A stretch of 62,941 nucleotides of DNA, the filler included, from Nemertoderma westbladi (lineage: Eukaryota > Animalia > Xenacoelomorpha): NCBI GenBank assembly GCA_032718475.1. It is 3 parts of 3 records of this genome, joined end to end, with 100 filler letters (N's around TTAATTAATTAA, not from the genome) between each part and the next. Parts side by side here need not be neighbours in the genome. Positions count along the whole stretch, not along the records: positions 23,072 to 50,057 come from JAUCBJ010008956.1; positions 50,158 to 62,941 come from JAUCBJ010000967.1; 1 more part is not named here. The stretch is one strand, 5' to 3'. Under the pieces are notes generated by a model, which was given only the letters and a program-made list of their open reading frames with translations, did no database searches and was not told where the DNA came from. Positions within the stretch are counted from its first letter, which is position 1. Each line of letters starts with the position of its first letter. Both the position numbers and the translations under genes were made by a program. Shown here piece after piece: positions 23,939-55,278 of the stretch.

Positions 23939-25730
23939 GGCATACAACAGGAATATGGAGAACATTCCATACCCTTTCGTGGATACTCAGCTGATTGCTC
24001 CTTGGGCCGAAGGCCGAGGTTTCTTTCGCACTATGTATGCCAATACACCCAGCGGCATTACTAAAGTACAACGGACATCCATCGGACATCTTGCCTTTCA
24101 AGAATATGGTTGGAATTTCAAAGTTGGAAATCCTATAAATTACCAGCAAGTATATGGAGATCATTACTCTCGTTTATATTTTGATGGACCATTAACTGCG
24201 CCTGGTGCCGTATATAGCTTTATGAGTGTTCCCCTTCGCCCTTCCTTAGCTATATACACGATCTTTGAAAACGCAGCACTTACCGGTTGGCTGGCCGATG
24301 TGTGCAGTCGTACCATACGCGCTCACCCGTTAATACTTGGAACTAAACTCGCCAAGTTAGACGAACACAATAAGTTCATACGTTTCGAATGTTTCCGGCA
24401 CTTTCTGACTCCGTTCCGTAACGTCGATAGTCAGTTCAAGGATCGCGCGCTGACCAAGCTCAGTCTTAGAGACTCATCTGCGGAGAAACTGAGTAGCGCT
24501 GGATTTGCCGTGTTTCAAGACGTTTGTATACAGAACTCACATTCATCTGTTATACAAAGACCCCGAATACCTACAGGTTATTCTGTCATGGAAATACAGA
24601 CAGTGGGTCCACTTACGGAAACCGACGCACCCACTTCGTCTATGCAGCTGGAGGATGAACCAGTATGCTTGGAATCCGAAGCGATTCAACCTACGGCTTC
24701 TCGGAGCAGTGACAATGATTATGTCATAGAGTGGTATCAAGGTCCACAGCGTCTCACAGCGTACGATTATCGACACGCCAACTACGTTTCCCGAAAACGT
24801 TGTCGATTATGCGCATCGAGAGACCACTTCACTCCTCTAGACTCGAGCGTACCTTGTTCCTATTTCCTCGAACAACCGATGATGGAAATATATTGTGCCT
24901 ATTGCCGGCTTAATAACTCTCATATATTTGCCGTCTGCCCACAATTTATGACTCAATGTCACTATTGCCAACTTAAAGGACACAAAAGTTACAATTGTCC
25001 CTTTAATCGCGATTTAGAGAGTGTAGACGAGATGATCACCCTGCGATACATCCGAGCTTGGGAAGCGAACGCAGATTTACATTGCGAATCCAGACATCGC
25101 TATTACCCAGGACGAGCTTACGAGGGAGTTTACGCGTTCCATCCTTATCTATTCGCGTCGATTGAACAGAAAACACGCGTACCAAGTTACGAGTTAATGA
25201 AGCGTGTTGGTGAGTGTATTTCCACCAAGTTTGTCAGGAAATACCTTAGAAACGTTAACCCTAATGATATAACCACATATCACCTGATCAATTTTATCCG
25301 TCAGGACCCGGAGTATGGCGACATCTTTGTGAACTCGCATCCTGAACTACAGGAAATATCTCGGCGACCATATGAATATCGAACCCGAGAACGCGAACTG
25401 GAGAGAACCATTAAACCGAGAAAGTTCCTCACTACTCACGGTCCACCCACCGCTAGTGTCCAGACGACCCGTCAAGGACCCGTAGGAGCTGCTGTCCTGA
25501 GACGCGCTCTAAAGGCCGTTAGATCTCACTCCACTGAGGTTGATATTAATCAACCAGGTACTTCGACCGGCGGGTATACCGATCGTAACCCTGCACCTTC
25601 TGATGCAATTATATTGCACCCTTCGCCTAGGAGCTACAGCCCTCCTCGTAAAGTGGCTCGCCCCAAAGAGAAAAGGACTCTTGCTAGCCTCAAGAAACTG
25701 CGTAAACGCCGTCCGCGCAAGAAAGACTAA
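23939..25730 (+). CDS. 5'-truncated accessory ORF of LTR family (copy B): DEDDy-like 3'-5' exonuclease (C-terminal half), three CCHC knuckles, basic tail
   Basis: 591-aa ORF. FVDTQLIA...SIGHLAFQEYGWNFK...PLRPSLAIYTIFE resembles RNase D/WRN. Removing one A at 23952 restores an ExoII-like GIQQD. Knuckles: CRLCASRDH..C, CAYCRLNNSHIFAVC, CHYCQLKGHKSYNC. Ends KKLRKRRPRKKD. Paralog at 52286-53992. Confidence 0.75.
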
Positions 25731-25808
25731 CTGTTTAGAGTATTTTTATATTTTAGAAACTGTGATTTTGTATATTTTATAGACTTAAATCCCATTTTCT
25801 GGGAGCGG

Positions 25809-27011
25809 TGTAAAAGCTTTTGTGGGATAACTGATTCGTTGCCTTGTTGGCCAGTTCCCCCCCAGTCGCTAGAATACTCTCAAAAGGGATCTATAGCTAA
25901 AAATAGTGCAAGTTACCAGCTTATTGGCTGATTTGCTGTACGCAGGCATCTGGGCTCTGTTTAATCGGCCAACAAGCCTAGGGAGGTTGCGTCATAGCCT
26001 TGTTTTTGTATCTCCCAATAGAATTTGAGTTAGCCTTGATTTTGACCTATCACAGAGCTACTGAACTGAAATTTTCCTATCTCACTGCTCTTTCTCTGTG
26101 TTGAACGGGAGCTTCGTGGAATAAGGGAGTTGGTATCCTCGTATAGAGCAGTAGTCACGAGTTTTTCAAAGCCACGAAAGAACGGCTTTTTAGTGTTTTG
26201 TGCTTTCTGCTTTTTAGCTCAACACTAGTAGGTTTAATTATAAGGACATATATCCTTTAACTGACTAATTGTCTTAACTCAAAACAAACTGGCTTTTAAT
26301 CACTTGAATAACTGCTGCTAAAATTACCTGCTCAATCAATACCGTATACTGCTATTTGTTGTCGGTTATTCATTATATTTGTTGATGAATTATTATATTG
26401 GAATAACGAGAAATAACCCCGACACCCAATATTCTTGATATACCGAAGGTAAGAGAGAAAGGTTACCAATAACGATTGTGACTTATGTTAAAGTGGTTTG
26501 AAGTGAATCTAATGTTATTTGATAGACCCTACATGAGTCAGTCTGTGTTCCTTTTATATGTGACTAAAATCAGTGAAGATTGGCAGATTAGTGTGCAGTA
26601 TTGTGCAGCATTGTGTATGAGTGAGTCTGTTAAAGAAGCATTTCCTAAAGAATGCGCCATATATGTGAATTATAATTAAGCCATATCGTTGTGAGTAGTT
26701 TAAGTCATAACTCTGTTTATATAAATAAAGCGCCACGTCCTAAAGGAACTGTTAATATTCCCGAAGGTGAATAATATTGTCAGAGATTATATAATACTGT
26801 CAGTCGAATAATACATTAGGCTTACATAGCAATAAAATTAAACCGTCGAACCCAATCTCCCGGGAATATCCAGCGGGTGAATGGTCGCGCACAGATTGGT
26901 TTCGACTAGTGTAGTGAATCAAATACTTGTCATAGGCTAAAAAGCGATTTAATATCTAGAAGACATCTTAATTTGGCGGGTTAAACTGCCAAAGGTCTGA
27001 AAGCGCGAACA
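25809..27011 (+). mobile_element. 3' LTR (copy B), 1203 bp
   Basis: Begins TGTAAAAGCTTTT directly after the PPT-like GGGAGCGG and ends AAAGCGCGAACA (imperfect terminal inverted repeat). AATAAA at 26831-26836. Confidence 0.8.
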
Positions 27012-28456
27012 GGATATTTGGGGGAAGGGGGAAGTTACAGTGTGCATTCGGGGGAAGTTTGGTGAACTGCATTTATGCAGTGAATCCAAACTTCCCCCTT
27101 TGATATATCATATACTTAAGACATGCTAGGGTGACGGGGAAATATTTGTTACTGTCACACTTTGTTTCCATTTATCCTATCCTTTATTATTACCCCAGTC
27201 AGATAAGAGATAATAAATCAGTAAAAACTAAACTAAACTGTCTTTCATGCAAACAAATTTCTAACTAAAGACGGGTGCATGACCATGACCATGGAAATAA
27301 TTTTAAATATAATTGTATATCAACTATTTGGGGAGGCTTCCAAGTTAAACCCGAAAACAATTATTTTGTTACATAGTAAATAACGTTGTATGTTCTTCTT
27401 CCTCTCATAATAAAATATAAATGAAATCTCTCAGATCGCTATGCCCTGTAACATTTCACAACCAAAATATTTAAGTGTGAAAAGTGTAGGCCTACCACAC
27501 TCCGCCCAAACAACCGCAAACGCATAGCCAACAAATTTAACAAAAGGTTACATACATGTTGGGTTCATGACGAGATGAGTGAAAATTGATCGCGTAATAT
27601 AAAGTAAAAAATTAAGAGACGGGCTGGCTCTCCTCCACTTTCTTACCCAATGGATATGTTGTTGTAATAATCTAATATTGGGGCGGCTTTCTCTCGGTCT
27701 GCCGAATGAATTCAACAGGAATAATATTTAATAAAGACAAGATTACTAGTGATACCAACATAACATACCATAACATAATCGATGGAAACCTATTAAGATG
27801 TCTGTCAGACATGGAACATACTGTACTGTACGACCAGTACAACAGTACTGTACAGTAGTGTATTGATCATATGTTACCATTCTGTTCACAGTCCAACTAC
27901 CAATATCAATCGACCTGTAGTACTTATAAGCTAGCAGTCTGGCGATGTGATTGATTTATTGATTAGATTTTCACCGCTTAAGTAACTCTAAATATTTGCA
28001 ATGTGCCTTGTATGCTGTTGGTCTATAGTCTCTCCATAGTAAATTTAATGCAGCAGCACGCGATGATAACATAACAGAAGCAATGTGTGGTAGTAGCCGA
28101 ATTTTAATGAAGACTTGAATCCAAACACAAGGGATAATGCATAAATCTTTCTGTATCATAGGCGCCACATGCTCGAAGACACCGTGAATAACCGGCACAA
28201 CGCCCTAGAGTACAACGCGAACTCGGACAGTGGAAATAAAACCCTTCCAGGCTTCTCGATTCTACAGTATATTATTCTATACAGAAAATAATTACGAGTA
28301 AGGGAGGGGGGGTCTTGAGCCACTGTTATTATATATTATATATATATATTATATATATATTATTATTATTATTATATATATATATAAAACATTATTAGTT
28401 TATCTTATACAGTAGCTATTTCACGCATCCCGCACGTCTACAGTGGTTATTATTAA

Positions 28457-29547
28457 CCCTATTAAACCCGGGGGAGGGTCAATATGACCCCCCCCCCCCC
28501 CGTGGTTTTTTTTTATTATAATTCTGAAACAAACGCAGTTGGGAATCTGAAATTTTATGACTTTTCCTAAAAATCTATTGTCTTACTAGTAATGAAAACC
28601 GTTTTCAAAAATATTGGGTAGTTTTCGAGTTATAGCACCATTTTTTAACCCTACTTTTGGCACTTTTTTGTAGACGTTTTTTGAAAATTAGATTTCATCA
28701 AATATTAATTGTAACATCTCCATTTTTGATTTATACTGGTTTTTTGGTGTTTGCAATTGGATGGAATTCATATAAATTGATTTAGAAATTTTAAACTTGT
28801 TTTTTTCGGCGGGTGCCAAATTTTGAAATATGTCAATTTTGTAAATTGATTGTTTGATTGTAAATTGATCAGTAGATAGTATCATCTTGTTTATTGCGTT
28901 ATACGGGTTTATGAGGGTCCTGAATCCGATGGAATCAATAAAAACAGCACTGGACATCGCAAACTTGTACTTTTTGGTGATGGGTACGAAATTTGGTGCT
29001 AGCACCAAAATTTGCCAAATTACGCCGAAAAATACGAGTAGCACTGATCTGGCATATTTGAAATGTATTCCATTAGAATCAGCGCCCTAGAAAACCTGAA
29101 AATGTGAATTTATAGCATCGAATAAGTGAATTAAAAATTTTGTGTTCTCACTGAAAAGTGCTGGTTACTTGTTTTTTTCATTTTTTTCCTACGCATAGAG
29201 GATTAAACAGCCATTTATGGTAATCATATCATATTTAAATATTTTCCAATGTATTTTGCGCCCCAGAAAACCTGTATTGAAAAATAATTAGCCGAAAAAT
29301 GTAACTCTCAAATTTTGTGAAAATTGTGCACTACTTGTAATTTTGGTGCTGCAATATTACCACCCCAGTACATTTTTTCGAAAATTTTTTTTTTCGGTCG
29401 GATCCAGACTAGTGATACCTACTTACAAACAGAAAATCAGACGTTTTCGTTAATATTTGTAGATTTTAGAGGGAGGGGTCAATATGACCCCCCCCCCCCC
29501 CCCCCTCCCGTATTTGTACAGCATTTTATAGCCCGGTACTAATAGGG
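28457..29547. mobile_element. piggyBac-type MITE
   Basis: TTAA on both sides. TIRs CCCTATTAAACCCGGG and CCCGGTACTAATAGGG. Subterminal GGGTCAATATGACCC palindromes at both ends. Non-coding. Confidence 0.85.
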
Positions 29548-30464
29548 TTAAACAATAGGCCTATAAATAAAATTTAATTAAAAAATAATAAACTACAGTA
29601 CCGGTACCAATTATGTACTCGAATAAGTCATATTAGTGGGGAAAAAATTCCTAGTAAGAGGGTCTAATTGGCTAATATTACGTAATGATAAATGTAATTT
29701 TTTATATTAATTAATTATTTATTTATTTATTTATCTCATCGCTGAATTATGTACTCACGTCTCCACCTCCACCTTATGGTCCAGCAGCGCCCCAAAACTT
29801 AAATAAGACTCCAGCTAGTGGACCAAAATACATCTCTTGCAATGGGCCTCGTTGCAACTGCTGTTCGGCCCTTCTAGACCAGCCGGACACCATGGGGTGA
29901 CCCCATCCATGGGATATTTAACTGCAAATAATTTAATTAATGTGATTTATTTTATTAAAATGTAAACTGCATCCACACTTGTAGTACCTCGGCCAGAAGG
30001 AAGAGCGTTTACATGAGCGCCTCCGAGGTCACCGTAGTGCCATAAATGACGCAGCTGGCAGGGGGCTCTAGGAGTCGATTTATCGAGTCCTGAAGTCTTA
30101 CTACTGCAACACTCTGCTATTTGTGGGATCATCGGTTAGCTCTATAATAAAATGTTCTAAAAGATTCACTACCGCGAATGTAGGATTGGACTATACTATA
30201 ATTATGTATTAGGCCCACATGGGGAAAAAAGTAGAACTTTTTTTCATTATTCTCGAGGCATTTTATTTACATCGCGCCAGCGAGGTTAATAAATGATCGA
30301 GGGAATATTGAAAAAAAAAATTTTCCGATGTAATGCGTAATTTTGTTGTTGCTCAATTCATTAATAAAACATACAGTAGAGTGATACCGGTATACAGTAC
30401 TACAGTACAGTGTAGTTAGGAGCCCGCTTGACAGCGGGATACTTACTGTAGGAATCTGGATACT

Positions 30465-31050: not shown

Positions 31051-31100
31051 CCTACCGCCTAAGGAGTACCTATATTACATATTCATATATTACATATTCT

Positions 31101-32529
31101 TATGAAAACAAATAAGTTGGTGCCAGTTCCCAAGAAGGGCAACCTAACACTCTATGGTTCTTTTCGGGGAATCTCATTGATCTCGATTGCTGCAAAGCTA
31201 TACAATAGGATTCTATTTAATCGCATCAGGGATCCCATTGAGAGACTGCTCCGTGGAAATCAGAATGGGTTCCGTAAAGGTCGTAGGACCATGGAGCCCA
31301 TTTTGGCACTTAGAAGGATAATTGAAGAATTATCAAAAAATAAAGACAGGCATCTGGCTGTTATCTTTGTTGACTTCTTCAAGGCCTTAGATTCAGTCTC
31401 TCGCTCACGTATGTTCAGCATACTTTCATTATATGGGATTCCTGATGAAATTATTGCAGCAATCAGATCAGTATACGATGGTTCGACAACATTTGTGTCT
31501 ACTGTTGACGGTGACACAGAACCATTTGAAGTGTTATGGGGCGTCCTCCAAGGAGACACACTTGCACCATTCTTGTTCATTATAGTGGTTGACTATGTTC
31601 TACGCATGTCCTTAGATCATCATAATGATGATGGGGTGATGATAACTCCACCTACTGGCTCCAGAAGTCGAGGAAATCCTGCCAAGTACCTAACTGATCT
31701 AGACTTTGCTGATGACTTAGGAGTACTCTCAGAATCATTAGAAGGAGCCCAACGGCTCCTCAGCTCATTAGAACATGCTGCTTCTAGTGTTGGTCTTTTT
31801 ATTAACTCCAGAATGACCAAAATTTATACAGTAAACTTTGAAAGTCCTCAGCAAGTCTCTGATCGGATGAGCATAAGCTCAAAGGATGGTATGCTTGAGC
31901 ATGTGGACGACTTCTGTTACCTGGGATCATGGATCCGGAAGTCAGGTGAGGACCTTCGAATACGTAAGGGAAAGGCATGGGCAGCCTTGAATAGGCTTTC
32001 CAGGATTTGGAAGTCACCGAGAATTAATCAAAAACTTAAGGTCCGATTATTTAGAGCAGCAGTAGTTCCAGTACTCCTCTACGGGAATCCATGCTGGGCT
32101 CTAACTGCTGAGGACACCAAATCTCTGGATGGCACATTCACAAGAATGCTACGCCGGGTTCATTGTGTCAAGTACTGTACAATGCACACATCTCCAACCA
32201 GACACTATATAACATTGGAGGTGTCTCATTGGTTCCCCCAAGCTTGACACTAGAACAAAATCGCCTCCGCTTTGCAGGACATTGCTTTCGCCGTGAGGAC
32301 CAGCCAGTGCATAATCTTGTACTTTGGCAGCCTCATGGAGTGAATAAGCATGGTGGACAGCCCATGACTTTCTTGAGACGCATTTTAAAGGACACTGGCC
32401 TTAAAGATGCGGATGATCTAGCAAATGTCATGGGTGATAGGGAGTTGTGGCGGTGCAATTTTGTTGACAAGCCGGCACAGCATTCTTAAAAATGCAGCTG
32501 CAATGCAGCATGTCGATCCTAGTAGTAGT
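31101..32529 (+). mobile_element. 5'-truncated RTE LINE
   Basis: ORFs 31102-32247 and 32163-32489 cover the RT, with a frameshift near 32175. (TAG)n tail. TSD AGTACCTATATTACATATTCA at 31065-31085 and 32530-32550. Confidence 0.93.
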
Positions 32530-33616
32530 AGTACCTATATTACATATTCACATAGAATTCACTGGGAAGAAATATTCTGCTTGACGACGGGGTAATACCT
32601 ATAGAAGGAAACTAAATTTGTTATTTGGCTCTATTCGTTGTTATTTATCTGGTTGTGCATCATGGGCATTTTTTATAAATATTCGGTAATCGCATCTTAT
32701 ATCTTGTAAACGTTCTTGATAATGAAATTATTTGCTTCATATTATATTTTTGTTAGTGGTAGCTAAGTTGCATTTTTTATTAAGTGGGGCGAGCCACAAA
32801 GTCAGCTAGCCTCACGCCTTGCAGTTTAGATAATTTTAGTTTACTTACTGCTGACTGACATAGTTCTTTGTAATAGTCTTGGCTAGGATTTTTCCCCCGG
32901 GCTCCTTCCAGCCAGCTTGCTGGCTTTCTAGTGTTATGTTACAAAATAGTATTTTACTATATTGCTTCCATAGTTACTACGATTCAAATTATTGTACTCT
33001 TGAACTCCTGATGCTGCCTTACTCAATGTTAAAATAATTTAGTGTTCTCGAATATTTATTACGTAACTGGAGAGACATAAACAAATATTGGATATTGAGT
33101 TCCCTTTTGGTGTACAGTACGCCTTGCAGACACTAAACTAAATTTGCAATAACTTTTGAGTGTGTGAATGGATTTTTTCACCGGGAAAAAATTAAAATCA
33201 ATGCATTCCTATGGGTTACTTTTTTACCCTAGGGAAAAAAGTGAAACTTTTTCTCCCGACTTTGGGGTATATTCGAGCGAAAAAGTAACAATTTAAGAAT
33301 AAAAACATTTGATCCTTGTTGTATGATTTTGCATTAATCAGCTTATTTTATTGCCCGTAGTTTTGCTGTATGGCCTGCCACACATTCTCGCTTTTAGGAT
33401 ACTTTTATACCGGTTTTAGTGCTTTGGATAGCTGGCCCCTCAGGCAATTTATCCCTATGAAGTTGTTAGTATTTTACTTAATCATTCTGTTAGTTTTATT
33501 TTATTATTTTTTAACATTTTTATTTCTGCAATTTCTGACGATTTTATATGTAATTTTATGTGTCATTTATATATACACTTTATCGGTCTTGTAGCATTTA
33601 TATGCAATCCAACCTC

Positions 33617-36461: not shown

Positions 36462-36749
36462 AACTCTAAATGGAACTCAATTGGTATACTGTGTGTGTTT
36501 ATTAGTTAACGTCTACCTCTACTGTTACCGTATAACTGTTGGTTTGTTTGTTTGTTTATAGTGTTCAGAAATCTTAAATTACAAATATTTTCTAAATGCT
36601 GTGATTGCAGAACTGGTCGTAGTAAAATGACTTGTAATTCTCGAGCTTTTTGTTAAAAATTATTGTTCGGAAAAATGTTCATAGTATATAACTTGTGATT
36701 AAATTTTAAATAATTAAATTTCAAAACTCGGGGACCATGGGGAGAGGTT

Positions 36750-38490
36750 AAGGGGGAGAGAACGGGTGAAGGGCGCATGAGGAGGAGTGAAGGGGGACAT
36801 GGGATGAATGGGGACATGGGGAGGGGTTAAGGGGGGCATGGAGAGGGGTGAAAGGGGGACATGGGGATGGGTGAAAGGGGGGGGGGTGAAGGGGGACATG
36901 GGGATGGGTGGAAGGGGTGAAGGCTGAAAGGGGACATGGGGATGAGTGAAAGGTGAAGGGGGACATGGGGATGAGTGAAAGGGGAAGAGGGGTGAAGGGG
37001 GACATGGGGAGGAGTGAAGGAGGGCATGGTGAGGGGTAGAGGGGGACATGGGAAGGGGTTGAGGGGGGCATGGGAAGGGGTGGAGGGGGACATGGGGATG
37101 AGTGAAAGGGGAAGAGGGGTGAAGGGGGACATGGGGAGGAGTGAAGGAGGGCATGGTGAGGGGTAGAGGGGGACATGGGAAGGGGTTGAGGGGGGCATGG
37201 GAAGGGTTGGAGGGGGACATGGGGATGGGTGAAGGGGGGTGGGGTGGAGGGGGGCATGGGGATGGGTGGAAGGGGTGAAGGCTGAAAGGGGACATGGGGA
37301 TGGGTGAAAGGGGAAGAGGGGTGAAGGGGGACATGGGGAGGAGTGAAGGAGGGCATGGTGAGGGGTAGAGGGGGACATGGGAAGGGGTTGAGGGGGGCAT
37401 GGGAAGGGGTGGAGGGGGACATGGGGATGGGTGAAAGGGGAAGAGGGGTGAAGGGGGACATGGGGAGGAGTGAAGGAGGGCATGGTGAGGGGTAGAGGGG
37501 GACACGGGAAGGGGTTGAGGGGGGCATGGGAAGGGGTGGAGGGGGACATGGGGATGGGTGAAGGGGGGTGGGGTGGAGGGAGGCATGGGGAGGGGTAAAG
37601 GGGGACATGGGGATGGGTGAAAGGGGGAGGGGTGAAGGGGGACATGGTGATGGGTGGAGGGGGACATGGGGATGGGTGAAAGGGGGAGGGGTGGATGGGG
37701 GCATGGGGCGGGGTGGAGGGGGACATGGGAAGAGGTGGAGGGGGGCATGGGGATAGTTGAAAGGGGGAGGGGTGAAGGGGGACATGGGGATGGGTGAAAG
37801 GGGGGGGTGAAGGGGGACATGGGGATGGGTGGAAGGGGTGAAGGCTGAAAGGGGACATGGGGATGGGTGAAAGGGGAAGAGGGGTGAAGGGGGACATGGG
37901 GAGGAGTGAAGGAGGGCATGGTGAGGGGTAGAGGGGGACATGGGAAGGGGTTGAGGGGGGCATGGGAAGGGGTGGAGGGGGACATGGGGATGGGTGAAGG
38001 GGGGTGGGGTGGAGGGGAGCATGGGGAGGGGTAAAGGGGGACATGGGGATGGGTGAAAGGGGGAGGGGTGAAGGGGGACATGGTGATGGGTGGAGGGGGA
38101 CATGGGGATGGGTGAAAGGGGGAGGGGTGGAGGGGGGCATGGGGCGGGGTGGAGGGGGGACATGGGAAGAGGTGGAGGGGGGCATGGGGATAGTTGAAAG
38201 GGGGAGGGGTGAAGGGGGACATGGGGAAGGGTGGAGGGGGACATGGGAAGGGGTGGATGGGGACATGGGGATGGGTGAAAGGGGGAGGGGTGAAGGGGGA
38301 CATGGGGATGGGTGAAAGGGGGAGTGGTGAAGGGGGACATATGGAGGGGTGGAGGAGGACATGGAAAGGGGTGGAGGGGGACATGGGGATTGGTTAAAGG
38401 GGGGGTGAAGGGGGACATGGGGAGGGTTGGAGGGGAACATGGGAAGGGGTGGAGGGGGACATAGGAAGTGGTGGAGGGGGACAGTGTGAG
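36750..38490 (+). repeat. G-rich minisatellite (GAAGGGGGACATGGGGATGGGT-type units with higher-order repeats)
   Basis: About 1.7 kb of ~21-33 bp units, nearly C-free except for CATG. It produces spurious Pro-rich ORFs in all three reverse frames. Confidence 0.95.
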
Positions 38491-38544
38491 GATTGAAGGG
38501 GACAGTGTGAGTGTGGGAGGATTGAAGGGGGCTGTCGCCAACGA

Positions 38545-39030
38545 TCTTTCATATACAGCACATTGAAACTGTGGAATGAACTCCCTAATTATATTAGGGA
38601 AACCCAAAAATTCAAAAGTTTTTAAGATTAATTTACGAGAATACCAGCAGTACCGACCAACAATAATCGCTCGTTATTTTTCACTGGGATCATTTGCGAT
38701 AAACGGTCTGTTAGGCTACGGCGTTCTTGCTGCACTCTTAAGGGTGACTTGTTTAACAATCATCTCGCTAATAATTATTGCTGTTCCTGTGGTGACGACC
38801 ACGAAAACGCCAAACATTTATTTATCTTCTGTCCATTATATTATGTACACCGTCTTGTTCTGGAGAACTCTGAACTTCTGTTCTTTAGATTTGGCCCTAA
38901 CGTTTTCGATAGAAAATACCCTGTATGGCCCAAGCAAGGGTAACATTTCTGACCTACACACTCTTATTGAAGCCGTTGAGACTTTTATTACAGCCACCGG
39001 ACGTTTCAGTGATCTCGCGTACTAAAAATT
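38545..39030 (+). pseudogene. 3' end of a CR1/L2-group LINE ORF2
   Basis: SFIYSTLKLWNELP...; LKGDLFNNHLANNYCCSCGDDHENAKHLFIFCPLY (C-terminal zinc finger), with frameshifts. Confidence 0.75.
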
Positions 39031-41312: not shown

Positions 41313-41444
41313 GAGCTAACTTTAGGAAGATCTGCCTTATAATATAAGGCAGATCTTCCTAAAGTTAGCTCTTCCTAAAGATAGCAATTAATTATAATAA
41401 TTCTAAAAATATAAGTTATATTTTTAGAATTATTATAATTAATT
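41313..41444. repeat. Two adjacent perfect 59-bp palindromes
   Basis: 41313-41371 and 41386-41444, each with 29-bp arms and a 1-nt loop. Confidence 0.95.
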
Positions 41445-43843: not shown

Positions 43844-44866
43844 ACTGCCACCCTTTCCAGTACAAATTACATGTCTTTCAATGATTTGAATTTCCCGCGC
43901 TGTGGAGCAGGTTGGCACCTTTTAGGGACTTGTAAGTTGTAAGACTACTGCTGTACTGGACTATGACCTAAATTTTGAGTCTCAGCATTACCATTGCATT
44001 ACCGGCTGACCGGTCTGCCGGTACTGGTATATTTTATTATACGAACAGTAGCCTAGATTTCTACTTGTATGCCAGTAAAATCTACATGAATCAAAGTTCT
44101 GTCAATCATTTTGTAATAAGCTATCTCATCGTGCTCTTATCTGCATCAACCCGATCATATAAATAACGTAGTCTGTTGCTTATACTTGGTTCATCATAAT
44201 ATAGGGACTGTATAATAAAATATAATAACAAAATATAATCACATCAGAACATCTGTACATCACCATTTGACTACCATAATAATATCATCATATATATAGT
44301 TTAGTTATATTAGCAACAAATACTAACCACGTTCTACAGGCCTATCTGCCTATGCCTAACCTAAAACAAAGTAAAGGCTATACGCTACCGATACTGTTAT
44401 ATTCCTATTACATCCCCCTTGGAAATAAAGATCGACTCGATCTTCAAAATTACTAAAAAATTATTACACTATTAATATTCTACTATCTTAAAAAAATAAC
44501 ATATCTCAATTCTTTATATTATAATCGTAATTAAAGCACTCAAAATAAATTCACAAAATACTTTCAGTTTATAATAATCGTATCAATCAAATTATCTATA
44601 TAGTATATTGTTAGGTGTACCAAATGCTTTAATCTATTACAACTGCAATACTCCTTTCCTTCATCACAAAAAATAGTTTTCCAAATACAAATTAAAAATA
44701 TATGCACAATAATTAAATTATTAATTACATTGTAATTGCTAACAAAATATAATCACATCAGAACATCTGTACATCACCATTTGACTACCATAATAATATC
44801 ATCATATATATAGTTTAGTTATATTAGCAACAAATACTAACCACGTTCTACAGGCCTATGCCTAAC

Positions 44867-45600
44867 CTAAATGTGACGGAATTTACATTTCTTCAACTTT
44901 AATTTCATTCCAACTCTTTCCAATGCTACTAAGACAGTTTCTAATCGCTTTAAGTGTTCTTCAGAACCAAATGCAAATATTAAAATATCATCGAGATATA
45001 TTAGACAAGTAATATATTGCAGTCCCGATAATGTCAGTTCCAGTCCAAATGTCATATTGCAGGTGCATTGGTCAAACCAAACGGCATACGTTTAAAATGA
45101 AATAAACCCATATGAGTTGAAAATGCTGTCTTCTCCTTGTCCTTTGGTTCAATCTTTACAGTCCAATAAGCCGAATAAACGTCAAGAGTACTACAATAAA
45201 GCCCCCGTCGGTGGTGCTCCAATACAGTCAATTAACTCAGTAACCGATGGTAAAGGATAAGCATCCCTCTTTGTCACTGCATTTAACGGCCTAAAATCAA
45301 TACAAAATCGTATACCACCACCTTTCTTAAGAGCAAGCACCGGCCTAAACAACCATGGACTCTCAGAACGTTCTATCACATCATTTTCTAACATATGATT
45401 TATTTGTTTCTCAATAACTGGCCAATGCGATTTCGGAGTTCTAACACCTTTAACTCTAATTGGTTTTGAGTCTCCTGTATCAATATGGTGAGACACACCC
45501 TCCACTAAACCTAAATCAGCTTCATTTCTGGCAAATACATGACAATGATTGTATAATATATTAACAAGTTAATCTTTCTCCTTGTGACTGGAATCATCCC
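44867..45600 (-). pseudogene. Disrupted Gypsy reverse transcriptase
   Basis: HHIDTGDSKPI...SPW...RFCIDFRPLN...YPLP; YLDDILIF; stops and frameshifts. Confidence 0.9.
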
Positions 45601-45629
45601 CTATTTGAAGTTCGGATTCAAATGTTTCC

Positions 45630-47639
45630 CTAGTCCATGGGCTCTGATAAAACATCTGGTACAGGCATAGACATACATTCCATATCACTATCATCTTCCC
45701 TATCATCACCATCTGTATTATTAATCTCATGTACAGTCTCAATATATTCTACCGATCCAAGTTTAGTCTTCTTATTGATTCGCATTTCCATGTTAGATGT
45801 ATTTAGAACCTGCACAGGTATACGTTGTAACTCATCAACTTTGGTAAGTGATCTTGCTGCATTGAGACCATGTTTCTTTGTTAAAGATTCAGACTGCTCA
45901 AATAAAAGAGAATCTCCCCTATTCATAGCATTATCTACATATCCAGTTATCATCTGTCGACTCCGTGGAGGTATTATTACTATATCATTACACCATACAG
46001 TTGCAATCGTCTTATCCCCATAAGAACGTGTAACTGTTTCACTGATCAGTTCCTCACCATCCATTTCGAGGATTATATCTCCGCTAACATTCCATCTCAT
46101 ACAAATACGGAATGCACCTAGCAAATCCAAGCCAATTAATACATCATGTTGTCCACTACGACCCACTAATAATTCTACGGTATGTTGCTTTCTCCCTAAC
46201 TGCATATTCAACATCACTGATCCCGTTATATCCATGACATGACCAGACGCAGACTTTGGTTCCACTGGCGGCGGTAATACCTGAACTTTCGTTGATGTAA
46301 GAGACTGTATTCTGTCCAAAGCAGCCTCAGATATTATTGATACTTCACTACCCCCATCGACGAAAGAACGATAATCTACACCCCCTACCGTTGCCAATGT
46401 AAAACATCGTCGTAAATGCTGACCATTCCATGGCAATTTAGATTTACCCTCCATTGTAGAGTTAGTTTTTCTGGCATCAATTGCTGATGATATTGCACCT
46501 TCCCCTTTGCTCACAGTTGGTGCTTCATTATAATCATCTTGAGTATGATTACATTTATCGTATCCCACAATAACTGTGTTACAAGATAAAGAAGATTGTT
46601 GATATTTATCATCTGTCTTACCTTTGCATTTATTCTTGTCATCCTTCTTTTTATTGTTCTTATAACAGTCTTTTATACGATGTCCGGACTTTCCACAACC
46701 ATGACACTTAATAGGTGAGCGACAATCATAAGCAAAATGACCATATTTTCCACAATTATAACAATGGACATTTGGTTTCTTTACAATTTCTGTGTTAGTA
46801 GAAAAATTAGCATTATTATTTGAACTAGACTTTGATTTGTTATAATTACTCGATTTATAATCAATTGAAGATGTAGTTACTGAACATTTCGGCTCTACAG
46901 CATGTTCCATATCTAGTGCATTTGCTTGTTGGAATAACTCTTTCCAAGTTGAGTCAGGATGAAGTCGTCGCCAACCTCGCAGACGTCCACTAAGTCCAGA
47001 ACGGATATTAACAGCAAAGAAATCCTGAAGTAATGGAGTTTCACCAACACCGTCTACTTCTTCCTTACGACGTCGAACACAAACCATGAATCGTTCAATA
47101 AATTCAGGTAAAGATTCATTAATACCCTGTTTACAGGAGGCAACTTCAGTAGCTGTACTCCTTCTACTGTCCCCAAGAATGCCTATTACAGCTTTCTTTA
47201 ATGAATCATAACTCTCCTTATCCGACTCGTCTAAGGTTTCTTCTAGCATTGTATGAAGTCGACCAATTTTCACTAGTAAACGGTTCTTCTTCTCTTCTGC
47301 TCCGACCTGGGAATCAGTCATTACCCTGTCATAATACTCATCAAACCATTCTTGGATTGACATTGTTTTTGGGTCGAAAGGAGGAATTTTTTCAGTTAAT
47401 TTCGTGGAACGCCTACTCATATCTCTAGAACCCGTTGCCGAATACATAGGATCGTCACCCTCATAATCTCTTCCCAAACGTTCCTGGTTATTCAGAAGAG
47501 ATCGGAACATCTCTTCTACCCGACGATTCCTCTCTTCTGCTACAACGCGTTCACTCTCTAAACGTGCGGCATCTTTATCGTAAAGTTTCTCCATCATTTG
47601 AGTAAACATTCTCGCCTGATTTTCCATCTGTTGTTGCAT
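45630..47639 (-). CDS. Gag plus aspartic protease
   Basis: Double knuckle CYNCGKYGHFAYDC / CHGCGKSGHRIKDC, protease VDGGS...LIGLDLL. The true start is probably frameshifted upstream. Confidence 0.88.
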   Translation of the reverse strand: MQQQMENQARMFTQMMEKLYDKDAARLESERVVAEERNRRVEEMFRSLLNNQERLGRDYEGDDPMYSATGSRDMSRRSTKLTEKIPPFDPKTMSIQEWFDEYYDRVMTDSQVGAEEKKNRLLVKIGRLHTMLEETLDESDKESYDSLKKAVIGILGDSRRSTATEVASCKQGINESLPEFIERFMVCVRRRKEEVDGVGETPLLQDFFAVNIRSGLSGRLRGWRRLHPDSTWKELFQQANALDMEHAVEPKCSVTTSSIDYKSSNYNKSKSSSNNNANFSTNTEIVKKPNVHCYNCGKYGHFAYDCRSPIKCHGCGKSGHRIKDCYKNNKKKDDKNKCKGKTDDKYQQSSLSCNTVIVGYDKCNHTQDDYNEAPTVSKGEGAISSAIDARKTNSTMEGKSKLPWNGQHLRRCFTLATVGGVDYRSFVDGGSEVSIISEAALDRIQSLTSTKVQVLPPPVEPKSASGHVMDITGSVMLNMQLGRKQHTVELLVGRSGQHDVLIGLDLLGAFRICMRWNVSGDIILEMDGEELISETVTRSYGDKTIATVWCNDIVIIPPRSRQMITGYVDNAMNRGDSLLFEQSESLTKKHGLNAARSLTKVDELQRIPVQVLNTSNMEMRINKKTKLGSVEYIETVHEINNTDGDDREDDSDMECMSMPVPDVLSEPMD

Positions 47640-48160
47640 AACAGTCTGACAGTACTGAACATTTGTGCGATGTTGCTCAAGTCAGTTGCCAACCCTGTAT
47701 CACCTCCTGCAGCACCCTTTGATGTCTGTTTCGACTTTTTCTCCTCACTCATTGCTGCTTTTCTAATCTCCCCGTGATAAATATCTTTCGTTTCTTCGGC
47801 AGTTTGACGAGTAACACGCTCCAGTTCTGCTACTTACCGCATAACCCACCTCTAGCTGTCTAGATGTTAAACATAAGCCTGTATACCCTTACCCTATAGA
47901 TCGTAGTGAATGCAGTCGGTGGGACCTCCATGTAATAAGCTATCTCATCATGCTCTTATCTGCATCAACCCGATCATATAAATAACGTAGTCTGTTGCTT
48001 ATACTTGGTTCATCATAATATAGGGACTGTATAATAAAATATAATAACAAAATATAATCACATCAGAACATCTGTACATCACCATTTGACTACCATAATA
48101 ATATCATCATATATATAGTTTAGTTATATTAGCAACAAATACTAACCACGTTCTACAGGC

Positions 48161-48967
48161 TAGGGCTCGATCGGAGCTCCGGCCTCCAGCTCCGGCTCCG
48201 GCCATTTTGGCACCTCCGGCTCCTGCTCCGGCTCCGGTAAAAATATTGCCGGAGTTAATTTTTTAATAAAGTATTATATTTCGTGCATATTCTAATCTGA
48301 ACAATTATTTACACTAGTATTATACAGCTATAGGCCTAAGTACTTTAGTACAGCTTCAATATCAAGCATAATACTGCAGTATTTACTGCTAGTCAATGAC
48401 TGACTGACTGCTGGACTGTACTGCAGTACCGGTACTGGTACTGGCCAGCTGACTGACTAGCAGACTATAACAGATAGGCCCTACTGTAAAAAATTTTAAA
48501 TGCTATGACTGTATGATTGTACACTATACCACTGCAGCTGCAGCCATTTACTGATGTCATGCCAGCATACTGTACTGCAGTACTAGCTGACTGGTAAACG
48601 TTTGGTAGGCTACCTTCCTACCTACAGACCTACAGTACACACCTCTACCACAGTTAGACAGTTAGTGAGATAGGTACGGTACTGTAGGTAATTTTTAACG
48701 TCAGGCCGTCCTGCCGTCTGTCCGTGATAAATTAATTACTTAAATTTTAAATTGAAAATTCGTAAATCTATAAATTATGAAATTAATTAGACCTACAGTG
48801 TGATTGATTATGAGCGATTTGCGAACAATAACCATACTTTATTTTTTTTTAAATAAATAATTGAATTTTTAAAATTTTTGAAAAACTCCGGCTCCTGCTC
48901 CGGCTCCGGCCAAATTGTCCAACTCCGGCTCCGGCTCCGGCCAAATCCCAACTCCGATCGAGCCCTA
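48161..48967. mobile_element. hAT-type MITE inserted in the Gypsy 5' LTR
   Basis: 16-bp TIR TAGGGCTCGATCGGAG, 8-bp TSD CTACAGGC, subterminal (CTCCGG)n. Confidence 0.92.
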
Positions 48968-50057
48968 CTACAGGCCTATGCCTAACCTAAAACAAAGTAT
49001 AGGCTATACGCTACCGATACTGTTATATTCCTATTACAATTTCATACTTGACCACAGACAGACAGAACCAAGGCCAAAGGCCGCTAGGGGTCCGTCTAAA
49101 AGCCACATCGGACCCAATCGGTACCACATCGGACCACATCGGACCACATCGGGGCCACATCGGACCACATCGGGGCCACATCGGAGCCACATCGGCCATA
49201 AAATAGCAATTTAGGATGTAAATAACAAGTTCCAGCACCAACCAGCCAACTGACCAAACTCGTATCAGTAATTCAGTAATTGTTAGTCTTTCTGACAACA
49301 TGTCAGGCTGGTAACCGGTACTGCACTGCAGTAGGTACTAGATACTACAATATCTAATGCAGAGACTATTGCCCCTACTTATACAGTACTGTACCCGTCT
49401 GCAGGTATACACAATGAGCTTGGCAGTTATTGTATTTGTATAATTAGGGGTAGGAGGTACAGGGTCATATTCTTGGAATCAAGGGGGTCGCCCCACATTC
49501 TATCCATTATGATCCCAGAACTACAAAAAAATCAAAAATTTGAAAAAAAATTTCATTTTCATCAGTAGACATCATATTTAGTCTGTCGCGTCGACAAAAA
49601 CTAATTTTCACCTTAGGCATAGTGATCGGAATCATTAATATGTTGTAACAAGAGTTTGGGAGGTCGTATAAAGTTGAAAATAGTCTCATTGGAACCGCAA
49701 TCGTCGGTTTACTGTTAGTGGATTAAAAAATATTTATTTTTCAACAGCGAACAATTTTTCAGTTAGAGACATGTCAAAAATCGACTTTTCAACCTAGGCG
49801 CGTAGTGATCAGAAGTCATAATATGTTGTAACAAGAGTTTGGAAGGTCGTATGAAGTTGAAAATAGTCTCATTGGAACCGCAATCGTCAGCTTACTGTTT
49901 AGTGAATTAAAAAAATTATTTTTCCACAGCAAACAATTTTTTCAGTATGACACTTCCCAATTTTCTTTGTTACTTTTCACCCTATGCCTATAGTGATCAG
50001 AAATCATGTTGTATACTCATCTGAACTTGAAATAAATTCTCATTGGAACCACAAATT

Positions 50058-50157
50058 NNNNNNNNNNNNNNNNNNNNNNNNNNNNNNNNNNNNNNNNNNN
50101 NTTAATTAATTAANNNNNNNNNNNNNNNNNNNNNNNNNNNNNNNNNNNNNNNNNNNN
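50058..50157. other. Artificial assembly linker
   Basis: 44 N + TTAATTAATTAA + 44 N. Confidence 0.97.
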
Positions 50158-51026
50158 CGGGGTGGAACGACGGCCGATGACCGAGATCCTGGCAGTGGGG
50201 ACGGTAGAAGAGGAGCGGGCCTCCAAGATGCAGTCAGCGTCGACGGCGAGTGCATTGAGGTCCGTTTGGTTCGACCTGGCGAGGACGCCCCGGACCTCGG
50301 CCGGCAGCTGGGCCAGGAAGATGGCCCGCAGGAGCGTTTCCGGGTCGGCATTGAGGCCTCTAATGTGCCGGAGGAGGCCGGTTGGCTTGTGGTCGCCGAG
50401 GCCGGCCAGCGAGAGAAGTTCCGCATCTTTGTTCGCCTGGGTGCGGCCGAAGGCCCTGCAGAGGGCGGTCTTGATGCCGTCGTACAGGTCGTTGGCCGGG
50501 GGGTTGATGATGTCGGACCGGACCTCCGCGGCGACGGCGTTGTCAAGGCACGCGATGATGTGGTTGTACTTGGTGCTGTCCACCGTGATCCCCTTGACGT
50601 CGAATTGGGCCTCCACCTGCCGGAACCAAACCTCCGGGTCGGAAGTCCAGAACGGAGGCAGTTTGAGAGCGACCGCAGAGATGGCGGCTGGGGTAGCCAG
50701 GGCGGCTTTTGCGCCGGTGGGGTTGGCGGCCAAGGAGGCGGCTTCGGCGAAGGCCTGATGTTCCTCGCGGGTAAGAGGCATGAGGACGAAGTAGGCGGGG
50801 AAAATAATCAGGAAAGGGAGTCTGAATCTCCGGGTCACCAATGTAGTGGTCAACGAAAGAATAATATAATAAAACGAAATATAATATTATTGCCTGAATA
50901 ATAATGACATACTGACTAACATGATATAAGGAAAGATAAGCAGTAGGACAGAGATGAAAGGCAGTGTAGTATAAATGTTCAATCAATGAATAGTTTTGAA
51001 TATCCCGCCAAAGTCTCTACCCTACA
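50158..51026 (-). mobile_element. 5' end of a CsRN1/Kabuki-like Gypsy element (LTR, PBS, gag), cut by the gap
   Basis: LTR TGTAG...CTACA at ~50842-51026. PBS TGGTGACCC (tRNA-Trp-like) at 50832-50840. Gag from ATG 50781 with KLPPFWTSDPEVWFRQVEAQF. Confidence 0.85.
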
Positions 51027-51249
51027 CGCCCATCCTACTTAGCCGGATTGGGACGCGGGCATCTAATATCACCATTTGATCCTTACAATCGTCCAGGATT
51101 AAACCCGATGCAACCCGCCACGGAAGTCGAGGAGAGCGTTATAAGAAACGCTTTTCGACGCTATTCGACAGAAGATCGGAAAGGGAACACAAGATTGTTT
51201 AGAGAAACGTAAATTACAACAACAAGTCCAATCGGAGAAGGAGTTAGCC

Positions 51250-53992
51250 TTGCCACAGTTCGATAGAGAAATCCAAAACCTCGAGGAGGACATCGAGCTT
51301 GGACGCACGTATTCTCTACAAGAGTTTCTAGATGAACGCTTACAGAGACAAGCGGAGGAAAATCTACTCGAGGAGAAACACACTAAATTGGACGAGAGAG
51401 AAGAAGCCGCTTTAGCCCAACCCGAAGCTCAAATCCTTATGACAGATCTCTACTCTAAAACCGTCCGTCATCCCTCGATGGTTCCACATTTCGGAGACAA
51501 ACTCTTCGCGACGATACAACCCCAACCGGTTGATATCAGTACAGGATCGCAAAATCTTATCGCTGACGCCCCTATGTTACAGCGTCCGCCAATCGAGGCT
51601 GCTCATGTTGACGGTATACTCGTTGAACCTCCGGACAATCGAGCGGATCTTGTCCGTCGTATGGTACACGATGTCAACATACGCGCTAGACCTTTACAGA
51701 ACTCGTTTTATGGGATTAAAGACCACCCTTATTACGTTAATCTGACTCAATATTATATGGTAAAACCAGAAGACCCGACGCATAATTTAAAGTTTCTACC
51801 ACTAATAAATCCTCTAGACGTTGTCGAACTCGAACAATTGCAGAAACATCTGGATCAGTTAGTAAAGGTAAACTCATTCAGAAAACCATATAACATTTCT
51901 CGAATCGAGAAGGATATAGAACCTCCTTATAATCTCGATGGATTTATTAAAACTCGATTAGTCCATTGGAATCTAGATGTATTATTTGAAGAAGAGAAAA
52001 TACAAAGATATGGAAATGTGGAGACGTATACCACTCGGCACATGAAGTATAGTGATCTCCCTGACGCTAACCAATGCGCCACCTTGTGGCATCCAGTAGG
52101 GATGACCCTAGAGAACGCCACCAAAGAGTGGAATGAAACTCTTAATGTCATTGAGATGTATGGAGTTGTCACCTACGATAATGAAGGTAGCGTTCCGGTC
52201 GGAGAACTAGGAACTACGCGCATGATCCACATACGCGGATTAGCTGGTTCTACCCACGTGTTTACTCGAGCGTGTTCCGACGTGATTGATTATTCCTTTG
52301 AAACTCTCACTGAAACGCAAAACTTCCATCGGACGAACTTCCATCGGACATCTTGCCTTTCAGGAATACGGATGGAATTTCAAAGTCGGAAATCCCATCA
52401 ACTATCAACAAGTATACGGAGACCATTATTCTCGATTATACTTTGATGGACCATTGACCGCACCTGGCGCCGTGTATAGCTTCATGAGTGTTCCACTCCG
52501 TCCCTCCTTAGCTATCTACACGATATTTGAAAACACCGCACTTTCCGGTTGGCTAGCCGATGTGTGCAGTCGTACTATACGCGCCCATCCATTAATACTT
52601 GGGACCAAACTCGCTAAGCTAGATGAACATAATAAATTCATCCGCTTCGAATGTTTCCGGCGATTTTTAACCCCGTTCCGCAACGTGGATAGCCAATTTA
52701 AAGACCGCGCTTTGACCAAGCTCAGCCTAAGAAACTCAGCTGCAAAGAAGTTAGATAGCGCTGGATTTGCCATTTTCAAAGAGATTTGTATATCGAACTT
52801 GCACTCCTCTGTTATACAAAGACCTCGAATCCCCACAGGTTATTCTGTCGTGGAAATTCAGACAATAGGTCCACTTGAAGAGACAGACACGCCCACCTCA
52901 GCTATGCACTGGGAAGACAAACCAATATGCCTAGAATCTGAGGAGATTCAGCCTATCACGCCCCGGAACAGCGACAACGATTACATCCTAGAATGGTATC
53001 AAGGTCCACAGTGTCTCACTGCGTACGATTATCGCCATGCCAACTATGTTTCTCGGCAACGTTGTCGGTTATGCGCATCGAGAGACCATGTTACGCCCAT
53101 GGACACAAACGTCCGCTGTTCCTATTTCCACGAACAACCGGCGATGGAAATTTATTGCACATATTGCAGACTCAATAACTTGCATATTTTTGCGGTTTGC
53201 CCTCAATTTATGACTCAATGTCACCATTGTCAACTAAAGGGACACGCCAGTTTCGATTGCCCTTTTAATCACGATTTGGAAAGCGTAGATGAAATGATTA
53301 CACTACGTTATATCAGAGCTTGGGAAGCGAACGCTGATTTACATTGTGATTCGCGCCATCGCTATTATCTTGGACGCGCTTACGAAGGAGTTTATGCGTT
53401 CCATCCTTATCTATTCGCTTCTGTCGAACAGAAATCACGCATATCGAGTTACGAACTACTGAAGCGCGTCGGAGAATGTATTTCAACCAAATTTGTACGC
53501 AAATTTCTCAGGAGTGTTAATCCTAGCGACCTTCATTCCTATAACTTAATCAATTATATCCGTCAGGATCCGGACTATGGAGACTTATTTGTTAACTCAC
53601 ACCCCGAGTTACAGGAAGTATATCGACGGCCTTACGAATACCGAGCCCGCGAACGCGAGTTGGAAAGAACCATTAAACCCAAGAAGTTTCTGACTGCCTA
53701 TGGTCCACCCACGGCTCTCGTTCAGACCACTCGTAAAGGACCCGTAAGAGCGGCCGTCCTAAAACGCGCTCTAAAGGCCGTTAGACCCCTCTCCCCCGAC
53801 GTTGATGTCAACCAACCTGGCACTTCGACCGGCGGATACACCGACCATAATCCTACACCCTCTGATGCAATCATATTGCACCCTTCACCCAGGAGTTATA
53901 GCCCTCCTTGTAAAGTGGCTCGCCCCAAAGAGAAAAAGACTCTGGCCAGCTTTAAAAAACTGCGTAAACGCCGTCTGCGCAAGAAAGACTAA
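51250..53992 (+). pseudogene. Accessory ORF of LTR family (copy C): coiled-coil N-terminus, DEDDy-like exonuclease, three CCHC knuckles; frameshifted near 52330
   Basis: ORF 51250-52446 contains the ExoI-like GVVTYDNEG...RMIHIRGLAGSTHVF. ORF 52286-53992 is highly similar to 23955-25730. The junction has a duplicated AACTTCCATCGGAC and lacks the FVDTQ block seen in copy B. Confidence 0.75.
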
Positions 53993-54069
53993 CTGTTTAG
54001 AGTATTTACGTATATTAGAAACTGTGATTTTGTATATTTATAGACTTGAATCCCATTTTCTGGGAGCGG

Positions 54070-55278
54070 TGTAAAAGCTTTTGCGGATATAATCAGTCCC
54101 CTTGCCCGCAAAGTACCGTGTGGGTGTTTTAACGGACATAAAAGTTGTTCTTCTATATGTGTGCTTTGGAGGACATGGCAAGACACAAAACCCGCAATGC
54201 GTCAAATCCTCTAGCACAGTGTAGCCTTGATGATTCAGATTACGACATCTAACAGCTGGTTGCTGGCATGGAAATGGCCGTTGGACACATGGTTCTTTGT
54301 TCAGCTTAACAGCCAATCAGAGCGATTTTTACTTTAGATGTGGAGATATTCTACAGATCGTACTAGGCGTGTTCAGTCTTACAGTGTTAGAGTTTTGTTG
54401 TTTCTATCTAGGCCAAGAACACCGGCTCTGGAGTAAAATTGTTTCAGACTTTAGAAGAAACATTAGTAGGCTTAGATTATAGAACGTATAACTGTTACCA
54501 ACCCAACCCAGTGCAACCCAATCAGTTCAGTATTACATTATCGGTTCAGTGCACGGTGCAAGTCACTGCAACATACATTATTATACTGCTATTTACTGTT
54601 GTCATTATTTGTATCAGTTGGTTGAATATTATTACTTGGAGAACATCGATAAATAACCCAAATTTCCCAATTTTCTTGATACACTACAGGTTAGAGAGAC
54701 AGGTTACATATAGCGATTGCGACTTATATTATCGTGGTTTGTAGTGAATTTAATGCTATTTGATAGGCACTACATGAGTCAATTGCTGTTCTCTTTATGT
54801 ATGATAAAATTCATTGACGGTCGGCAGATTAGTGTGCAGTATTGTGCGGTACCGGTAGTGTGCATGATTGTGGCTGATAACTAAGCATTTCCTAAAGAAT
54901 GCGCCTCATACGTGAATCATAAGCCTTACCTTCTTACCGTTGTGTTTAGTATAAGTCATATCTCTGTTTACCTAGATAGAGCGCCACGTCCTAAAGGAAC
55001 TGTTAATATTTCCCGAACGTGAATAATATTCGTCAGAAATTATTTATTAACGATCAATCGAATAATACAGTAAGCTTACACTGCAATAAAATCTAAGCCC
55101 TCCGAATCCAGTCTCCCGGGTATATCCAGCGGGTGAATGGACGCGCACTAGGCTGGCTTCGGCTAATGTTGTGTTTATTGGTATTAAATACTTGTCATAT
55201 GTTAAAGTCTATTTATAAACCAAAAGACATATAAATTTTGGCAGGTTAAACTGCTAAAGGTCTTCAAAAGCGCGTACA
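54070..55278 (+). mobile_element. 3' LTR (copy C), 1209 bp
   Basis: GGGAGCGG|TGTAAAAGCTTTT ... AAAAGCGCGTACA (10/13 terminal inverted repeat). AATAAA at 55085-55090. Confidence 0.82.

Follow-up and report, generated by a model that had tools for sequence, protein, structure and literature searches.

A very abundant LTR retroelement family of Nemertoderma westbladi whose conserved last gene partly resembles DEDDy exonucleases

Introduction

The role of third open reading frames (ORFs) other than env in long terminal repeat (LTR) retrotransposons is a standing question. In bdelloid rotifers, the LTR retrotransposons Juno and Vesta carry a DEDDy ORF3 (Rodriguez, Kenefick and Arkhipova 2017, PMC5408684), for which the available portions of that article report no sign of selection and no demonstrated activity, and the same portions describe EXD1 and Maelstrom as inactive DEDD derivatives that keep RNA binding. 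DEDDy is also mentioned as a known accessory domain in an excerpt of PMC6338049, and the literature searched, from which most subscription journals fall outside, held no DEDDy ORF3 of an LTR element outside rotifers. Here we analysed a stretch of 62,941 nt from Nemertoderma westbladi (assembly GCA_032718475.1; hereafter the window), which is rich in transposons and holds three pieces of an LTR retroelement family. The last gene before the 3′ LTR of this family is under strong purifying selection, and our leading, still tentative, reading is that it codes for an accessory RNA-binding protein of the ORF3 type, composed of a DEDDy-derived, probably catalytically impaired domain followed by zinc knuckles.

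The window consists of three contigs joined by N-linkers at 22972–23071 and 50058–50157, with one family piece on each contig, and because the contigs are artificially joined their order does not imply that the three copies are adjacent in the genome.

Results

Layout and abundance of the family

The two ORF-bearing copies (copy 1 and copy 2) share the same order of ORF, 69–70 nt, purine tract and 1.2-kb TG..CA repeat. The ORF stop codons lie at 25728–25730 and 53990–53992, and GGGAGCGG follows 70 nt (copy 1) or 69 nt (copy 2) past the stop and directly abuts the LTR, so that TG..CA termini with an adjoining purine tract are present in both of these copies (Table 1). This layout, together with its coordinates and the end of a third LTR at 897, had been given by an earlier, sequence-based reading of the window (the initial annotation) and was borne out by the repeat comparison. 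Flanks differ at all three family ends in the window. The last 630–720 bp of the LTRs are 74–79% alike by BLASTN and AATAAA is kept in all three (at 55085 in copy 2); the first 500 bp of the copy 1 and copy 2 LTRs gave no BLASTN alignment, as expected for a variable U3 (unique 3′) region. A splice-donor-like AG/GT[AT]AGA was also seen by eye upstream of the poly(A) signal in each LTR (54680–54695, 26440–26455 and ~301–316).

Abundance was judged from contigs assembled from public sequencing runs, labelled X1–X6. Part of the family stretch was present in six of the seven runs listed, and X1 gave 20,334 contigs over 5.4 kb. Summed contig depth in X1, which is not a copy number, was 112–221 on a Gypsy gag inserted in copy 2 versus 62,000–1,180,000 across 51068–55253, indicating that the family is a very abundant, diverged repeat. 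Depth dropped from 365,433 to 854 and then to 0 across 55279–55288, and the sequences beyond 55278 were mixed (agreement 0.47 in X3). One continuation after the LTR end recurs, in three X4 contigs (agreement 0.91), in the majority of 20 X1 contigs (0.66) and, for its first letters, in X5; it is absent from the window and was not among the rows listed for X3 or X6, beyond which lie a further 38. We read this recurring sequence as the leader that follows a 5′ LTR, which would imply that 5′ LTRs exist. From the TG..CA ends, the purine tract, the sharp end with varied flanks, the abundance and the recurring post-LTR sequence, we conclude that the family is an LTR retroelement of very high copy number; the LTR nature proposed in the initial annotation thus gains support beyond its original evidence from the abundance in X1, the sharp end at 55278 and the recurring sequence.

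Both copies are cut on their 5′ side, and no pol-like sequence adjoins either of them in the window. Copy 2 is interrupted at 51027 by a minus-strand Gypsy insertion (50158–51027; LTR of ~180 bp, TGG primer site, GC-rich DUF7041 gag), which is itself cut by the contig edge. Copy 2 also carries an internal deletion with a frame break at 52322–52333, in which the ExoII/DT region was lost, and the run contigs showed both this joint and loose ends before 52333. Copy 1 has no detectable similarity to copy 2 upstream of ~23960, and its frame is broken near 23950. The sequence upstream of copy 1 (23072–23930) resembles decayed coding DNA without a match in the window or in Pfam, and could either belong to the element or have nothing to do with it. 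Contigs of X5 extend upstream past 51027 into other sequence; hence the ORF probably begins further upstream and would have at least ~1000 codons.

Selection on the ORF and its parts

The two copies can be aligned without frame-breaking gaps between 24071–25825 and 52333–54086, at 81.7% identity over 1755 bp. Over 550 codons, dS was 1.11 and dN 0.08 (dN/dS 0.072), and in the C-terminal half of the exonuclease-like region 90 of 92 residues are identical, 36 of the 38 base changes falling at third positions. The ORF is therefore under strong purifying selection and was functional while the subfamilies of copy 1 and copy 2 diverged.

Three zinc knuckles, annotated initially as three CCHC knuckles, are present in both copies, with one of them having the canonical spacing CX2CX4HX4C and the others CX2CX4HX9C and CX2CX5HX4C. 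Their best Pfam match was zf-CCHC_3 (E 0.0064), short of the family cut-off. The helical regions gave no match to HRDC or any other Pfam family, the ORF matched no gag or capsid family of Pfam, although two other gags in the window did, and no protease motif was seen by eye 3′ of the knuckles. The ORF ends in a basic tail (25692 in copy 1, 53954 in copy 2).

No relative of the C-terminal 590 residues of copy 1, or of the two-copy alignment, was found in any database searched. A word-indexed protein search returned none among 4076 candidates of near length and none among 2417 longer ones, and HMMER over 1.84 billion cluster representatives returned no match at E ≤ 0.001; these two large protein collections were searched with the C-terminal part, the N-terminal 395 residues standing outside that search. 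Viral contigs, metagenome contigs (searched both at the protein level and with a DNA pattern) and PDB sequences gave no match, no related loci were found in the viral or metagenome contigs, and the ESM Atlas search gave no usable match. The sole match named 'exonuclease', phrog_1674 (E 0.46), was dropped as chance; its best genome match has no Pfam match, and is, read by eye, presumably a PD-(D/E)XK-type protein.

Likeness to DEDDy exonucleases

The ORF was compared with a reference profile of 61 bacterial DEDDy proteins (RNase D, Pol I and WRN-like), drawn from 40 bacterial loci and 4 others, of which 34 passed the motif filter, and from WRN-like proteins, of which 105 of 120 passed and 27 were used. 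The references are bacterial alone, with no eukaryotic or rotifer protein among them, and the broken pieces of the ORF were tested one by one, so that negative outcomes are compatible with a divergent DEDDy fold. The DT motif is the strongest DEDDy-like block and exceeds every decoy (Table 1); in HHalign this motif alone reached a probability of 5%, a value to which none of 87 decoys rose. The ExoI block GVVTYDNEG of copy 2 scored 14.6, was the top site in its ORF and exceeded the decoy maximum of 12.8 (3978 decoy positions), with a D-x-E (D at 52177, E at 52183) placed after a hydrophobic strand, in this copy only. The SL-helix-like block SIGHLAFQEYGW scored 10.4, ranking second in its ORF, and 0.23% of decoys reach that score. 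These three blocks occur in DEDDy order. The motifs VVTYDNEG, FVDTQLIA (23976) and SIGHLAFQEYG (24078 and 52340), as well as the basic tail, lie where the initial annotation had placed them; of the DEDDy domain that it proposed, the part that stands is that ExoI and DT outscore the decoys with an SL-helix-like block in order, and the part without support is the catalytic set. We consider a DEDDy-derived fold or origin of the domain fairly probable and an intact active site doubtful.

The catalytic set fails at ExoIII and is doubtful at ExoII. Three ExoIII-like registers compete, and none was recognised: the 61 references score at least 65 at 48–58 residues after DT. The Y-x3-E register (PL..SLAIYTIFE), which had been taken for ExoIII, scored −14.7 at 91 residues after DT, ranked 30th of 569 positions in the ORF and was equalled by 4.8% of decoy positions. 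The best score, −5.9, belongs to a Y-x3-S register 77 residues after DT, with Ser in place of the acid, and a Y-x1-D register at the right distance (57 residues) has a broken motif and scored −32.6. Catalysis is probably impaired, since none of the ExoIII registers was recognised and the highest-scoring one carries Ser for Asp. The ExoII candidate is deleted in copy 2, and in copy 1, where the initial annotation read it as GIQQD, it needs a frame change near 23950, in a part of copy 1 that has no detectable similarity to copy 2 and is of uncertain membership in the family, and would stand 10 residues before DT, compared with 16–17 in the references; this assignment is a doubtful one.

Several results weigh against a DEDDy-derived accessory protein. 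Two other positions in the copy 1 ORF (13.9 and 13.0) also exceed all ExoI decoys, so the ExoI block lacks specificity; for the beta2 and ExoII blocks, no site turned up where one was expected. The DT-to-SL spacing is 32 residues versus 14–18 in the references, and large insertions are needed to accommodate it. Neither PF01612 nor any other exonuclease family gave a match that held up in Pfam, PHROGs or NCBIfam. With hidden Markov models of bacterial DEDDy proteins, no piece of the ORF scored above 3.9 bits or ranked above six-frame noise, and the register differed; forced alignments were weak and profile-dependent (ExoI part: z 1.6 and −0.7; C-half: z 0.9 and 2.6), and HHalign probability did not exceed 5%. 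The profile searches proposed initially as a check for a DnaQ/RNase D domain thus returned no significant match in Pfam, HMMER or HHalign. Moreover, gag, pol and target-site duplications are not seen in the window copies, both of which are without their 5′ part, and the RNA-binding role is a putative one, drawn from analogy. Two AlphaFold models had a pLDDT (predicted local distance difference test) of 29.5 and 42.9, too poor to judge the fold, and Foldseek with these low-confidence models gave no match at E ≤ 0.001, which is uninformative at that model quality.

Primer site

TGG is absent from the 30 letters that X1 and X4 give of the recurring post-LTR sequence, and a transfer RNA (tRNA) scan found no tRNA in the window. 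Letters 2–9 of the recurring sequence pair at 8 of 8 positions with the candidate self-primer segment of the LTR, a site kept in copy 1 and with one mismatch in copy 3 (by eye), and a similar motif also occurs in U5 (unique 5′ region) at 55249. A second, longer pairing, likewise read by eye, involves the segment with the poly(A) signal (Table 1). The two pairing features occur together in 94 of 52,091 overlapping 30-mers of the window, or in 42 of 16,305 when the 30-mers are matched for AT content, by a statistic chosen post hoc. An excerpt of PMC6317226 sets as the criterion for self-priming at least 10 bp of LTR complementarity starting 0–5 nt past the LTR; compared with this, the conserved site has 8 bp, and a 10-bp site (54489–54498) was seen by eye in copy 2 only. 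Self-priming is thus possible, as the post-LTR sequence pairs with the element's own LTR, but this possibility is a lead, not a result, and a tRNA-half primer may be an alternative.

Table 1. Positions of the family's features along the window
Feature	Position	Strand	Remark
Copy 1, ORF 3′ part	23958..25730	+	590 codons open; DT motif, SL-helix-like motif, helical region, three Cys/His knuckles, helical domain, basic tail
DT motif PFVDTQLIAP	23973..24002	+	Strongest DEDDy-like block; score 31.9 vs decoy maximum 19.1 (3977 positions)
Three competing ExoIII-like registers (Y at 24153, 24213, 24255)	24132..24269	+	None recognised
Three Cys/His knuckles	24801..24998 (copy 1), 53063..53260 (copy 2)	+	One canonical CCHC
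Copy 1, purine tract GGGAGCGG, likely polypurine tract	25801..25808	+	Adjoins LTR start
Copy 1, 3′ LTR	25809..27011	+	1203 bp, TG..CA; repeat comparison
Copy 2, ORF 5′ part	51027..52322	+	Charged, likely coiled-coil region, unknown domain, ExoI-like motif (52165–52188)
Copy 2, internal deletion and frame break	52322..52333	+	
Copy 2, ORF 3′ part	52334..53992	+	Protein 85% identical to copy 1
Copy 2, purine tract GGGAGCGG	54062..54069	+	Adjoins LTR start
Copy 2, 3′ LTR	54070..55278	+	1209 bp, TG..CA; sharp family boundary at 55278
Candidate self-primer segment in LTR	54998..55005	+	8/8 complementary to post-LTR letters 2–9
LTR segment with poly(A) signal	55074..55093	+	Pairs with post-LTR letters 13–30 of X4: 10 contiguous, 17 in all
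Third LTR	1..897	+	Start lost at contig edge, LINE (long interspersed nuclear element) fragment after it; 3′ or solo LTR

Other elements in the window

A ~7-kb element at 12502–19482 has 534-bp direct repeats (99.3% identical), apparently interrupts an RTE-like LINE, and contains two long low-complexity ORFs (13077–16821) with no Pfam pol match; its knuckle is presumably BEL/Pao-like, and we regard it as a candidate young gag-only LTR element. At 3971–9234 lies a Gypsy element with 215-bp LTRs (99.5% identical), a TGG primer site, a 5-bp target duplication and one gag-pol frame of 1596 codons, and at 44112–48160 (minus strand) a Gypsy-like element whose 230-bp LTRs are 99.6% identical, with a gag-protease ORF and a reverse transcriptase reduced to a short remnant. 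Several fragments of an RTE-like LINE family, 85–97% alike, were found at 1332–1748, 19240–22271 and 31063–32533, and a tandem array with units of ~22 bp spans 36700–38700. An uninterrupted ORF of 337 codons at 56329–57342 (minus strand) carries a fatty acid hydroxylase domain (PF04116, E 3e-27) and resembles what we take to be alkylglycerol monooxygenase; the absence of introns points to a retrocopy or to gene transfer.

Discussion

Under the preferred reading of an RNA-binding accessory protein, gag and pol would lie upstream and make the gene an ORF3, and the 'env position' given to it by the initial annotation is to be read in the same conditional way. Transcription would start in the 5′ LTR of the element, and the gag and pol products would package the RNA and copy it into DNA. 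The accessory protein would bind the element's own RNA, its exonuclease-like cleft gripping the 3′ end and its knuckles the single strand, and such binding would protect or chaperone the RNA in the particle or in the nucleus, to which the basic tail may direct the protein. A tRNA 3′ end would likely not be what starts minus-strand synthesis; the primer may instead be RNA of the element's own LTR.

It is rather unlikely, though the most serious of the alternatives, that the ORF is not DEDDy-derived at all and codes for an orphan structural, nucleocapsid-like (gag-like) protein, possibly as the sole gene of a non-autonomous LTR family, with the motifs arising by chance. Every whole-domain test was negative, the charged N-terminal part, the clustered knuckles and the basic tail fit it on general grounds, and neither copy adjoins a pol-like sequence. 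However, the ORF matches no gag or capsid family of Pfam where two other gags of the same window do, the DT block is a strong outlier, and the knuckles are not followed by a protease motif (by eye).

That the protein is an active DEDDy 3′–5′ exonuclease with a YxxxE ExoIII, trimming element RNA, primer or small RNAs, we judge unlikely, and the roles suggested for it in the initial annotation (destruction of silencing RNAs, processing of a primer, proofreading) are speculative. The D-x-E of ExoI in copy 2 and the position of the exonuclease-like region as the most conserved part of the ORF speak for it, as do a helix predicted after the YxxxE register (residues 106–122, in a low-confidence model) and the retention of catalytic residues, in a DEED variant, by rotifer ORF3s as described in excerpts of PMC5408684; but the YxxxE register falls far short of the references in score and stands too far from DT, the ExoII candidate is unverified and too near DT, and ExoI is present in one copy only. 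A more elaborate form of this idea, which we regard as a long shot, is a tRNA-independent element that uses its own knuckle-bearing 3′–5′ exonuclease to make its primer. In such an element, RNA of the 5′ LTR would fold onto the primer site, the leader would mask the 5′ poly(A) signal, and the unpaired 3′ tail would be cut back to the duplex by the nuclease that the element encodes; if true, self-priming leader and ORF3 nuclease would be connected, and the DEDDy genes of retrotransposons would have a first function.

A Penelope-like/Terminon or DIRS-like element with pseudo-LTRs and a DEDDy ORF is very improbable: Terminons do bear DEDDy ORFs and are mostly 5′-truncated according to the accessible text of PMC6431247, and both window copies are without their 5′ part, but a purine tract adjoins the repeat with its TG..CA ends, Rfam searches of the LTR and the window gave no match, not even to hammerheads, and the Gypsy insertion accounts for the 5′ end of copy 2. 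A host gene family with a conserved 3′ untranslated region, set by the initial annotation as its refuter, would suit the strong purifying selection and the conserved AATAAA but is effectively excluded by the extreme abundance, the base-sharp end with unrelated flanks, the TG..CA ends with their purine tract and the conserved sequence past the repeat.

Strong purifying selection, in a family that has been extremely successful, means that the gene matters to the element, and its function can be tested on the many natural copies. If the DEDDy origin is true, the ORF3 class widens to a divergent, perhaps catalytically dead form; if it is false, the gene codes for an orphan protein of ~1000 residues. 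The primer site, apparently of a non-tRNA kind, offers a further lead. In having no TGG past the LTR and a putative primer site complementary to its own LTR, the family resembles Tf1/Tj1, the Tf1/sushi group and self-primed Ty3/gypsy elements, as these are portrayed in excerpts of PMC7175516, PMC4600332 and PMC6317226. In Tf1, according to the first of these excerpts, the pairing takes up 11 bases from the RNA 5′ end, whereas this family pairs 8 bases at a conserved site, and its longer pairing, with the poly(A) signal, begins ~13 bases downstream.

Among transposon-borne DEDDy domains, the ORFs of Terminon/Athena (PMC6431247) and the insert of the Dada transposase (PMC3706591) have both been proposed, in the passages available, to act in 3′-end processing, but their classes differ, being Penelope-like and DDE DNA transposon, respectively, and this family, unlike either, has LTR anatomy. 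EXD1 and Maelstrom, in the partial account cited above, offer a possible functional analogy, in that a nuclease fold is kept for RNA binding; these are host genes, and the likeness proposed is one of function.

The closest comparison is with Juno and Vesta, which we draw from published descriptions rather than from aligned sequences. As far as the excerpts of PMC5408684 go, both are LTR elements that, like this family, carry at their 3′ end an additional ORF that is not env and has RNase D-like motifs, and some Vesta ORFs have a Cys-His-Cys motif where this family has knuckles too. In the rotifer ORFs HHpred homology is strong and the catalytic residues are intact, whereas here the homology is marginal and ExoIII is unrecognised; this family differs further in its ~1000 codons, three knuckles, additional domains and basic tail. 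It is also very abundant and under clear purifying selection between copies, while the excerpts give the rotifer elements as low in copy number, without departure from neutrality within the genome. The arrangement of a DEDDy ORF3 has already been published for rotifer elements, so that this family, on the preferred reading, is a variant of it.

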